Shown here in pieces: positions 3,397 through 7,290 of a stretch of 64,000 nucleotides of DNA. The stretch is from the sequence record OQ718158.1. One strand, written 5' to 3'. Every line of letters starts with the position of its first letter. Position 1 is the stretch's first letter. A model generated the notes under the pieces. The model was not told where the DNA came from and did no database searches. It saw nothing but the letters and a program-made list of their open reading frames with translations. The position numbers and the translations under genes were made by a program. The stretch is from Escherichia phage vB_Ec-M-J.

Positions 3397-3512
<116 letters not shown>

Positions 3513-3516
3513 AAAT

Positions 3517-3602
<86 letters not shown>

Positions 3603-3619
3603 CAATTAAAGGTTAAACC

Positions 3620-3780
<161 letters not shown>

Positions 3781-3784
<4 letters not shown>

Positions 3785-3941
3785 CACATGAAGAATGGAT
3801 GAATGACATTAATTTTAGATATTCGGGTATCGGTAAATGGCTAAAGTATCATTGGGAATTCATTTCAGAGCCACATCTGTATGATAAACTTATCAACGAT
3901 CCAGCATATGAAATGTACTTAATTGAACTACTGGTACGAAT

Positions 3942-3945
<4 letters not shown>
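3781..3945 (+). CDS. hypothetical 54-aa protein, MTHEEW family copy 2
   Basis: Near-identical 5' half to copy 1; ATGA overlap. Confidence 0.55.
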
Positions 3946-4113
<168 letters not shown>

Positions 4114-4114
4114 G

Positions 4115-4536
<422 letters not shown>

Positions 4537-4540
<4 letters not shown>

Positions 4541-4565
4541 CTAAATAGTTCAGTACTGATATAAT
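4537..4565 (+). promoter_or_regulatory. sigma70-like promoter with cagtactg spacer
   Basis: TTGACT-N17-TATAAT. Confidence 0.6.
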
Positions 4566-4569
4566 GAAT

Positions 4570-4910
4570 TCCACAATCAGACGTATATGGTGTAAGTTAC
4601 GTCGATGTAATCCAGAACAAGATCTCTGGTACTCTAGGAAGTGGTGAATGTTAACCTAGACGGGTTTGATAATTGGACGATAGGCAATTATTACTTGACT
4701 AGCAGGTTTAAACTAGAGGTGACAGTCCTTTACCAAACTGGAAAACCGGATGGACTTTTATTTAAAAGGGTAAGGCGTGGAAATATGTTTACAGTAGTTG
4801 CTTTTAGTAGCCTGTACGCCCCACGTCAAGGTAGCCGAAAGGCAAGTTAAAACGGGTGGTTATAAAGCTGAATTAACAGCGGCGTTTAAAAGCGTCACCA
4901 TCCATTTTTT
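4570..4910 (+). ncRNA. candidate structured non-coding RNA (about 340 nt)
   Basis: Promoter-proximal, locally GC-richer, no convincing ORF, ends in T8 run. Confidence 0.3.
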
Positions 4911-4928
4911 TTAATTAAAGTTGGTGAT

Positions 4929-5568
<640 letters not shown>

Positions 5569-5572
5569 CAAA

Positions 5573-5730
<158 letters not shown>

Positions 5731-5755
5731 CAAAAAAAAACAATGAGAGGTATAA

Positions 5756-6253
<498 letters not shown>

Positions 6254-6254
6254 T

Positions 6255-6286
<32 letters not shown>

Positions 6287-6330
6287 GATTCCCGATTCAG
6301 TAGTTTTAAAGCAGACCCGTATGTGCCTAT

Positions 6331-6422
<92 letters not shown>

Positions 6423-6441
6423 AGAGGTACTTCGAGTATGC

Positions 6442-6493
<52 letters not shown>

Positions 6494-6582
6494 TCAGTAC
6501 TACTTTTTAATTGACATATCATTGGATGAGGTGTAATATGGTTCAAGAAGAAAACTGGGGTTTTTAACACAAAGAGGCCAAT

Positions 6583-6725
<143 letters not shown>

Positions 6726-6726
6726 A

Positions 6727-6766
<40 letters not shown>

Positions 6767-6882
6767 TCAGGTCGATTAGTTAAAAGAGTATAACACGGAC
6801 CTTGTAAGTCTGAATAATCAGTGCAATTCTGATATTGACCTCAAAAATGATATTTTTCTTACATATAAATACTCCATAATAT

Positions 6883-7290
6883 ATGGAGAACTATATGAAA
6901 GAAAAACGTTATTGTACATGTTGTAAAATTGAATTGGTTCGAAAGGGCCAAACAAAATATTGTAGTGTTGCATGTCAACAAGAGCTACAATATCAACAGA
7001 AAGTTGATAAATGGCTTAACGGTGAACATCCTGGATATAAAGGTATTACCATACAGTTATGTCCATTTGTGAGAAGATATCTACATGAAACACGCGGAAC
7101 TGCATGTGAAGAATGTGGATGGGATAAACGTCATCCAATAGATGGTGCAGTACTGACAGAAGTTGAGCACATTGATGGTGATGCTACAAATAATGACCTA
7201 CCAAATTTAAAAATCCTTTGCCCTAATTGTCATTCGATGACACCAACATTCAGAGCAAGGAACAAGAACTCCGCAAGGAATCGTAAATAA
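6883..7290 (+). CDS. HNH homing endonuclease
   Basis: N-terminal Cys cluster plus EVEHIDGD...NN...LCPNCHS HNH motif. Confidence 0.75.
   Translation: MENYMKEKRYCTCCKIELVRKGQTKYCSVACQQELQYQQKVDKWLNGEHPGYKGITIQLCPFVRRYLHETRGTACEECGWDKRHPIDGAVLTEVEHIDGDATNNDLPNLKILCPNCHSMTPTFRARNKNSARNRK

Follow-up and report, generated by a model that had tools for sequence, protein, structure and literature searches.

The DNA analysed here is a 64,000-nucleotide (nt) stretch of Escherichia phage vB_Ec-M-J (record OQ718158.1), referred to as the window. Five transfer RNA (tRNA) genes (3423-6842), all on the + strand, form an island in it around a segment at 4567-4912. By BLAST, the region 4100-5350 is 94-99% identical to the Asteriusvirus jumbo coliphages 121Q, PBECO4, Turkey3 and Ecwhy_1. 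The original prediction had placed a single candidate structured non-coding RNA of about 340 nt in this segment, downstream of a promoter at 4537, locally richer in G+C, closed by a run of eight T residues (T8) and typical of a tRNA cluster in its location. The promoter, the T8 run and the position among the tRNA genes were all found, and the G+C content of 4567-4912 is 40.5% compared to 31.3% and 29.0% in the flanking open reading frames (ORFs) and 35.1% in the whole window. The candidate RNA itself was supported by extensive compensatory substitutions and by interruption of the ORF in homologues. The segment is structured and non-coding as predicted, but it is not one RNA: it consists of two separate modules, RNA1 at 4567-4759 and RNA2 at 4770-4912 (Table 1). 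Because the conservation is sharply bounded in unrelated phages and the predicted pairs covary, the stretch exceeds what chance would give. We conclude that it almost certainly encodes two structured, non-coding and separable RNA genes.

Relatives were collected by BLAST with 4566-4916 (351 nt) as the query under sensitive settings, and homologues of RNA1 were present in some 70 phage records, with a few more on metagenome or IMG/VR contigs. The structure of RNA1 was drawn by eye from alignments, and 17 distinct sequences were aligned by covariance model. Across these, 96% of pair cells held standard pairs and 27 of the 48 pairs showed compensatory changes. None of 500 column shuffles reached the observed values, and sliding the partners by 1-3 columns left only 23-41% of cells paired. 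RNAalifold independently recovered H4, H6', H7 and Halt. The covariance models R1 and R2 score RNA1 at 4567-4759 with 224-243 bits. R1, which was built from 11 enteric-type sequences and holds nested helices only, with PK1 and PK3 left out, retrieved the copies of Aeromonas phages and of the uncultured contig L006 at 72-85 bits (expectation value, E, about 1e-21 to 1e-25).

Table 1. Features of the RNA1/RNA2 locus, in window positions.
Feature	Position	Strand	Description
Sigma-70-type promoter	4537-4565	+	TTGACT-17 nt-TATAAT with extended -10 TG; 11/12 match
RNA1	4567-4759	+	193-nt multi-pseudoknot non-coding RNA; supported by covariance models and covariation; borders match those of cross-family homology
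RNA1 domain I, pseudoknot	4571-4660	+	5' end pairs into the H4 loop, enclosing H2 and H3
PK1	4571-4574 / 4641-4644	+	Second strand within the H4 loop
H2	4576-4584 / 4599-4606	+	5/8 pairs compensatory
H3	4612-4615 / 4626-4629	+	Hairpin inside domain I
H4	4633-4638 / 4655-4660	+	100% paired; 4/6 pairs compensatory
H5 hairpin	4668-4675 / 4685-4692	+	7/8 pairs compensatory; 99% of cells paired
RNA1 domain III, compact H-type pseudoknot	4693-4716	+	H6' plus H6
H6'	4693-4697 / 4703-4707	+	Covariation, RNAalifold
H6	4699-4702 / 4713-4716	+	First strand in the H6' loop; covariation
RNA1 domain IV, H-type pseudoknot	4714-4755	+	H7/PK3; locks the 3' end
H7	4718-4722 / 4730-4734	+	Pair 155:165 shows five standard pair types
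PK3	4725-4728 / 4752-4755	+	Loop GUCC with 3'-terminal GGAC; 100% paired
Halt (alternative helix)	4714-4716 / 4738-4740	+	Mutually exclusive with H6
69-amino-acid (aa) ORF	4641-4850	+	GTG start; largest ORF; spans parts of RNA1 and RNA2
Linker UUUUAUUUAAAAGG	4756-4769	+	A/U-rich, single-stranded, between RNA1 and RNA2; promoter inserted here in relatives
RNA2 module	4770-4912	+	Second structured RNA (4770-4904) plus T8
RNA2	4770-4904	+	5' long hairpin, GNRA hairpin, Y-shaped 3' domain
RNA2 5' long hairpin	4774-4780 / 4821-4827	+	Closes 4790-4816
RNA2 GNRA hairpin	4834-4843	+	
RNA2 Y-shaped 3' domain	4854-4860 / 4897-4903	+	7-bp stem; hairpins 4867-4880 and 4881-4896
T8 run	4905-4912	+	Follows the 7-bp RNA2 closing stem plus one A

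RNA1 contains three H-type pseudoknots, PK1/H4, H6'/H6 and H7/PK3, and in each of them both stems covary. In PK1, pair 5:78 is CG in 11 sequences, GC in five and AU in one. In PK3, pair 159:189 is GC in ten, AU in six and GU in one, and pair 160:188 is UA in 13 and CG in four. Since PK1 and PK3 were both absent from the alignment model, their covariation was not fitted. The compact pseudoknot of domain III varies in the same manner: pair 128:140 of H6' is CG in 15 sequences, GC in one and AU in one, pair 127:141 is AU in 11 and CG in five, and pair 134:149 of H6 is UA in 14 and AU in three. The loop of H5, GACGAUA (4676-4682), is identical in 17 of 17 sequences. G-U pairs are frequent (one pair is UG in all 17 sequences, another is GU in 13) and make the fold specific to the + strand transcript.

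One position pairs in two ways. In the Ceceduovirus clade (AS-zj, CC2 and AP1), 4715 (149) changes from A to U, and its partners 4700 (134) and 4739 (173) both change from U to A. Because the three positions change together, H6 and Halt are both preserved even though they are mutually exclusive. The covariation may point to two alternative conformers or to a base triple, or may be coincidental in a single lineage.

For RNA2, eight sequences were aligned, including a variant from metagenome contig L012, a 3'-half paralogue from phage EJP2 and a 5'-hairpin homologue from a Kuravirus. Pairing was found in 98% of cells, with 8 of 36 pairs compensatory, and dropped to 30-48% in the slid controls. 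On four of five measures none of 500 shuffles reached the observed value, and on the fifth one did. The minimum-energy fold of the window RNA2 gives the same structure (z = -2.9). When 343 nt were folded as a single sequence, a check that the original prediction had proposed, the result was not significant alone (z = -1.6), and the support for structure comes from the comparative analysis.

The 3' domain of RNA2 occurs in a second setting. In EJP2 (L028, 1495-1605), the interval between tRNA-Ser and tRNA-Arg is occupied exactly by a diverged paralogue of the 3' half of RNA2. It has the GNRA hairpin and the Y-shaped domain, whose closing stem shows compensatory changes, so the domain also exists as a tRNA-flanked unit. 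In the window, the T8 run together with the RNA2 closing stem is a probable intrinsic terminator of this phage group. A simple terminator scan made no call at the RNA2 end, because the closing stem there encloses a branched domain. Only the E. coli/Salmonella group keeps the T8 run; RaK2-type phages and L012 have a degraded form, AAAUUUUAA, and the EJP2 paralogue has none, so this 3' domain evidently does more than terminate transcription.

Relatives of the window phage separate the two modules. In RaK2 and in metagenome contigs L013 and L012, a complete promoter is inserted between RNA1 and RNA2, so that each RNA has a promoter before it. In JNE01, RNA1 is gone and a window-type promoter is joined directly to the first base of RNA2. 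In EJP2, RNA1 is present and RNA2 is absent at the matching site. In phAPEC6 (L040, ~740-800), what remains is the promoter followed by the initial 36 nt of RNA1, joined straight to the downstream ORF. These losses and the interposed promoters indicate that both RNAs are accessory and have been gained or lost independently. The BLAST of 4100-5350 also revealed the same kind of deletion as in phAPEC6, with both RNAs lost, in the Asteriusvirus phages G17 and Sharanji.

The length of the match to the window differs between phage groups. The full 351 nt is 97-100% identical in E. coli and Salmonella jumbo phages (Asteriusvirus), and the Klebsiella RaK2/K64-1 group is ~81% identical to this unit. 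Only the first ~188 nt, at 85-91% identity, are found in T4-like Bragavirus (Proteus phages PM2 and Pm5461, Shigella phage SdyM006), in Morganella phage Mm5 and in T5-like Novosibvirus (Proteus phages 1 and 2). A ~64-nt core is shared by the Aeromonas T4-like phages 65, avDM6, AS-zj, CC2 and AP1 (Emmerichvirinae). The core is also conserved on L006, a 120-kb IMG/VR contig for which no close isolate relative was found. RNA1 is thus carried by jumbo (Asteriusvirus, Alcyoneusvirus), T4-like and T5-like phages and by one uncultured contig.

All examined copies of RNA1 lie inside a tRNA cluster and on the tRNA strand. RNA1 is between tRNA-Gly and tRNA-Asp in PM2 and SdyM006, between tRNA-Leu and tRNA-Ser in Proteus phage 1 and between tRNA-Pro and tRNA-Thr in the Aeromonas phages; it precedes tRNA-Glu in Mm5 and is upstream of tRNA-Thr in L006. 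The 5' border of homology, AAUUCCAC (AAUUAGCAC in Aeromonas), falls 0-1 base past the encoded CCA of the preceding tRNA, and in several lineages the CCA directly upstream is donated by tRNA-Gly, tRNA-Leu or tRNA-Pro. The 3' border, GGAUGGNN, falls roughly 9-14 nt ahead of the next tRNA in PM2, SdyM006, Mm5 and Proteus phage 1. No homologue of the window's neighbouring proteins was found at the RNA1 loci of other lineages. Since no neighbour protein is held in common, the RNA alone is the unit shared between lineages. RNA1 retains about 90% identity across jumbo, T4-like and T5-like phages despite unrelated flanks, suggesting recent transfer of the exact RNA unit together with strong selection.

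Homing-endonuclease genes were observed near RNA1. In SdyM006, a segD-like gene adjoins RNA1. In the window, a 135-aa ORF (6883-7290, +) beside tRNA-Thr has Cys pairs and an HNH-type motif, EVEHIDGD...NLKILCPNCH, and probably encodes a homing endonuclease like those that mobilise the tRNA regions of T4 and T5. Such nearby endonucleases are a plausible vehicle for RNA1 transfer.

Outside these phages, no copy of RNA1 or RNA2 was found in 5,426 complete E. coli genomes, and the RNA1 core motif was absent from a 185,579-species genome collection (one genome per bacterial species). Pattern scans of IMG/VR, metagenomes and the genome collection returned only known phages, L006 and L011-L014, and BLAST from the diverged L006 and AS-zj copies gave no further lineages. 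L015-L017, L025 and L031-L039 were considered as RNA1 relatives and rejected as chance matches, judged by context or covariance model. Within the collections searched, the RNA1 family is confined to the tRNA islands of virulent Enterobacterales and Aeromonas phages. Most matching records are unannotated at RNA1 and RNA2, and some label the stretch 'hypothetical protein'. Among the papers searched, none describes either RNA or contains their signature sequence words.

The Rfam scan suggested in the original prediction returned no family for 4567-4912. In Rfam 15, the whole window gave tRNAs only at the gathering threshold, and at E <= 10 the window, AS-zj and L006 copies gave only chance-level matches of about 14 bits. 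There was no Rfam 15 match to Drum, ROOL, GOLLD, RNase P RNA, 6S, RtT, a group I intron, a riboswitch or a ribozyme. ARAGORN made no call in 4567-4912, and no tRNA or transfer-messenger RNA (tmRNA) model matched there at E <= 10. Two further candidates were rejected. The words GACUGUCC and AACCGGAU resemble parts of the M1 RNA of RNase P, but no covariance model matched, and the common word lies in a hairpin stem in M1 and in a pseudoknot loop in RNA1. Readings as a hepatitis delta virus (HDV)-like or preQ1-I-like pseudoknot were discarded on topology or loop lengths that did not fit and on the lack of a model match. The HDV-type fold is a nested double pseudoknot with the order P1-P2-P3-P3'-P1'-P4-P2' and a cleavage site at its 5' end. 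Domain I of RNA1 has the order PK1-[H2][H3]-H4-PK1'-H4', with only AA between H4 and PK1', and is not HDV-like.

In position, the two RNAs resemble the stable RNAs of well-known phages. T4 rnaC and rnaD (species 1 and 2) are small stable RNAs of unexplained function, encoded next to each other on the same strand as the tRNAs, where the tRNA cluster ends. Like them, RNA1 and RNA2 are two non-tRNA RNAs side by side in a tRNA island. However, rnaC and rnaD do not align to RNA1 or RNA2, R1 and R2 have no match in the T4 region, and rnaC has a tRNA-like T-arm (GGTTCGAATCC), whereas RNA1 has none and is built from pseudoknots. T5 has eight RNAs (I, III, IV, 1, 2, 2H, 3 and X) annotated 'stable RNA with unknown functions', which are interspersed with tRNAs, promoters and HNH (heg) genes. 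The T5-like Novosibvirus carries RNA1, but the T5 stable RNAs are unrelated to RNA1 and RNA2 by covariance model and short-word BLAST. RNA1 and RNA2 therefore share position, strand and non-coding nature with the T4 and T5 stable RNAs but no sequence or structure, and RNA1 is a new family within this class rather than a homologue.

Other RNAs offer partial likenesses. Drum, ROOL and GOLLD are orphan structured RNAs that are often found near tRNA genes in phages and prophages. None of their models matches RNA1, which is far smaller than ROOL or GOLLD and occurs in virulent phages of Enterobacterales and Aeromonas. The E. coli RtT RNA and tRNA-spacer sponges such as 3'ETS-leuZ are cut out of tRNA precursors by the nucleases of tRNA processing, after which they act in trans. 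This excision logic resembles the one proposed below for RNA1; however, RtT has no Rfam match here, and spacer sponges are short and unstructured compared to the compact, pseudoknotted RNA1. Consecutive H-type pseudoknots occur in the upstream pseudoknot domain of tobacco mosaic virus, the tRNA-like structure of turnip yellow mosaic virus and tmRNA, with a 3' end formed from a coaxial pseudoknot helix. Domain IV of RNA1 is like these plant-virus ends in that PK3, H7 and Halt add up to 12 bp. The likeness is architectural only, as RNA1 has no T-loop, anticodon-like arm or conserved NCCA tail. Finally, RNA sequencing (RNA-seq) of PA5oct, a jumbo phage related to 121Q and RaK2, detected ORF-free non-coding RNAs at 2-5% of phage reads (PMC7318152). 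These RNAs, ncRNA001 and ncRNA002, are not homologous to RNA1 and do not lie in a tRNA cluster, but they show that such jumbo phages do express abundant non-coding RNAs.

Other explanations of the segment were weighed against this evidence. A 69-codon frame does exist at 4641-4850 and some records annotate a 'hypothetical protein', yet we give next to no weight to the possibility that this or another short ORF is a small protein gene. The frame had been described as weak and lacking a Shine-Dalgarno site, and this was confirmed: the only purine-rich stretch upstream (AGGAA) abuts the GTG start, leaving no properly spaced Shine-Dalgarno sequence. It is hit by stops or frameshifts in 12 of 16 other homologues. 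It stops at codon 3 in PM2 and SdyM006 and at codon 17 in RaK2, meets several stops in the Aeromonas and L006 copies, and is shifted by single-base indels, which are evidently tolerated, in Pm5461 (+1), Mm5 (-1 and +2) and L012. The ORF also bridges two modules that are parted by promoters or lost independently and is itself split by promoter insertion or deletion in RaK2, L013 and JNE01, and the substitutions are compensatory in RNA helices. The 69-aa ORF is not a gene. It also appears very unlikely that the segment is a cis-acting leader or attenuator, a riboswitch-like 5' untranslated region with a terminator that controls the 123-aa ORF at 4929-5300. The unit does lie between a promoter and that ORF, its stem plus T8 ends 17 nt before the ATG at 4929, and the pairing that H6 and Halt keep through the same substitution could mean a conformational switch. 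Elsewhere, however, RNA1 precedes tRNA-Asp, tRNA-Glu, tRNA-Ser, tRNA-Thr or another promoter, so that no downstream gene class is conserved, and the lineages share no neighbour protein; moreover, the T-run is not kept in RaK2, L012 and EJP2, and no riboswitch family matches.

The start of RNA1 immediately after the CCA of an upstream tRNA in several lineages, its dense pseudoknots and its invariant unpaired GACGAUA and ACGGG would suit a self-cleaving or catalytic RNA that cuts tRNA-cluster transcripts, for example by releasing the 3' end of the upstream tRNA. HDV-like theta ribozymes adjoining phage tRNAs are documented (PMC10879173). This explanation is nevertheless improbable: no Rfam 15 ribozyme model matches at E <= 10, the order of domain I is unlike the HDV type and lacks a P3 hairpin between the crossing strands, and in the window phage, RaK2 and L012 it is a promoter and not a tRNA that precedes RNA1, which leaves nothing to release. 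An element that works purely as DNA and has no RNA function, be it an origin of replication, a site of recombination or homing or the remains of a tRNA cluster, would fit tRNA islands that in T4-like and T5-like phages are full of homing endonuclease genes (the segD-like gene of SdyM006, the HNH gene at 6883-7290, the heg genes of T5), as well as the decayed tRNA-like element nearby at 3517-3601. Against it, the G-U pairs of RNA1 would be A-C mismatches on the other strand, which implies selection on the + transcript, and compensatory changes in nine helices are unexpected for a protein-binding DNA site. In addition, no tRNA model matches and the orientation always follows the tRNAs. We regard an element acting only as DNA as highly improbable.

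We consider it probable instead that RNA1 and RNA2 are two accessory, trans-acting stable RNAs of the tRNA island that are matured by the tRNA-processing machinery. In the window phage, the strong host-type promoter at 4537 would transcribe both RNAs, with a start expected at ~4571-4573 from promoter spacing; in RaK2 and L012 the spacing places +1 on RNA1 nucleotide 1. The A/U-rich linker is likely an RNase E-type endonuclease site, and a cut there would part RNA1 from RNA2. In the T4-like and T5-like phages, RNA1 would be transcribed as part of a multi-tRNA precursor. In these tRNA-flanked copies, its 5' end would be made by release of the upstream tRNA 3' end at CCA|AAUU, and its 3' end by RNase P cleavage at the tRNA downstream and subsequent trimming as far as PK3. 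Given how its borders abut the tRNA ends, tRNA-type maturation of RNA1 is fairly likely. The product would consist of one invariant-loop hairpin and three H-type pseudoknots with both ends tucked in. Because both termini are buried in pseudoknots, RNA1 should be stable, and locked termini that abut tRNA ends would be consistent with a discrete, stable, processed species.

A trans-acting, accessory role for the RNAs is suggested because they are dispensable, mobile and highly conserved across hosts. The likeliest partner of the mature RNAs would be a conserved factor, of host or phage, that takes part in tRNA metabolism, translation or defence aimed at tRNAs. That their action is directed at a protein or at defence is a possibility that we put forward tentatively. 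More speculative, and on present indications doubtful, is the idea that RNA1 represents a new functional class of phage RNA. It would be a self-contained, horizontally mobile RNA of 190 nt and three pseudoknots that, by being catalytic or by mimicking a tRNA acceptor arm with its 3' pseudoknot domain, captures or neutralises a host factor involved in translation, in the processing of tRNAs or in anti-phage defence that cleaves them.

Several observations weigh against reading RNA1 and RNA2 as stable, trans-acting RNAs of the tRNA island. Folded as a single nested sequence, RNA1 scores no better than its shuffled versions (z = -0.7) and gains no independent support, although this is expected because a third of the pairs are pseudoknotted. 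The covariation comes largely from three clades (enteric, Aeromonas and L006), with a modest number of independent substitution events, and the nested-helix alignment was itself fitted to the covariance model. A start at ~4572, as set by the -10 spacing, would trim the first C of the 5' strand of PK1. The natural deletion variants show that both RNAs are non-essential.

To our knowledge, the non-tRNA 'stable RNAs' of the T4 and T5 tRNA clusters have never been explained, a puzzle that is roughly 50 years old. RNA1 is a new RNA family and RNA2 a second structured RNA within this known but unexplained kind of phage gene. RNA1 gives the class a member with a well-supported three-pseudoknot fold in which both termini are locked; the family is small, but its fold and cross-family mobility are striking. 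RNA1 is absent from Rfam, and its description corrects the 'hypothetical protein' labels placed over the stretch in many deposited genomes. phAPEC6, JNE01 and EJP2 are ready-made knock-outs for genetics. Phage tRNA clusters are regarded as counter-defence loci against tRNA-cleaving immunity that are shuffled by homing endonucleases (e.g. PMC13096335). If RNA1 does capture a host factor, the non-tRNA cargo of phage tRNA islands would be anti-defence or takeover machinery, and the T4/T5 stable-RNA puzzle would gain a tractable model.

Other elements of the island were also observed. The promoter belongs to a near-identical cassette, TTGACTAAATAGTTCAGTACTG-ATATAAT, that is used three times within 1.2 kb on the + strand (4116-4143, 4537-4565 and 5297-5325). 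The 29-bp copy at 5297-5325 drives tRNA-Ser, and its -10 hexamer ends 7 nt before the tRNA +1 (5332). With the -10 so close, this tRNA-Ser would lack a 5' leader and need no RNase P. Ahead of the copy at 4116, three tandem, abutting 54-aa ORFs (3620-4106, +), each starting MTHEEWM, form a paralogous array. A tRNA-like element (3517-3601, +) follows tRNA-Ser(tga) directly. Its acceptor stem is 7 bp long (CCGGGCG/CGCCUGG), its T-arm reads GCAGG-UUCGAGU-CCUGU, its CCA is encoded, and CUUCUAA forms an anticodon-like loop (UCU, Arg). The D-arm is missing and a 23-nt extra segment is present; neither ARAGORN nor Rfam detected the element. A normal tRNA-Arg is found at the matching place in EJP2, and the element may be a decayed or non-canonical tRNA-Arg.

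Further RNA-like segments were seen in relatives. On L012 (JACCDR011713278.1, reverse strand), four promoter-driven small RNA genes stand in a row: RNA1, a ~165-nt unfamiliar RNA with a closing long-range stem of 18 bp (CAACGGTGAGTAACATTG / CAATGTTACTCACCATTG), a gene resembling a tRNA, and RNA2. Such an array suggests that phage tRNA islands hold further undescribed RNAs. In Escherichia phage vB-EcoP-XT18, a Kuravirus (L027), a ~790-nt ORF-free, G+C-rich region (1014-1802) lies ~1 kb downstream of tRNA-Arg, and a permissive Rfam 15 scan of it gave no match. Within it, the RNA2 5' hairpin has a homologue at 1502-1560, followed first by a hairpin whose loop carries GGACGAUAU and then by CAGAUGGAG; these two sequences are signature words of RNA1. 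The region may be a larger modular RNA that shares parts with RNA1 and RNA2. Finally, the Aeromonas T4-like phages (L018-L021 and L004) have an extra ~85-nt segment with two long hairpins between RNA1 and tRNA-Thr (~1284-1368 of L018). The BLAST match to phage ZPAH1 stops before this segment, which may be another separable module.

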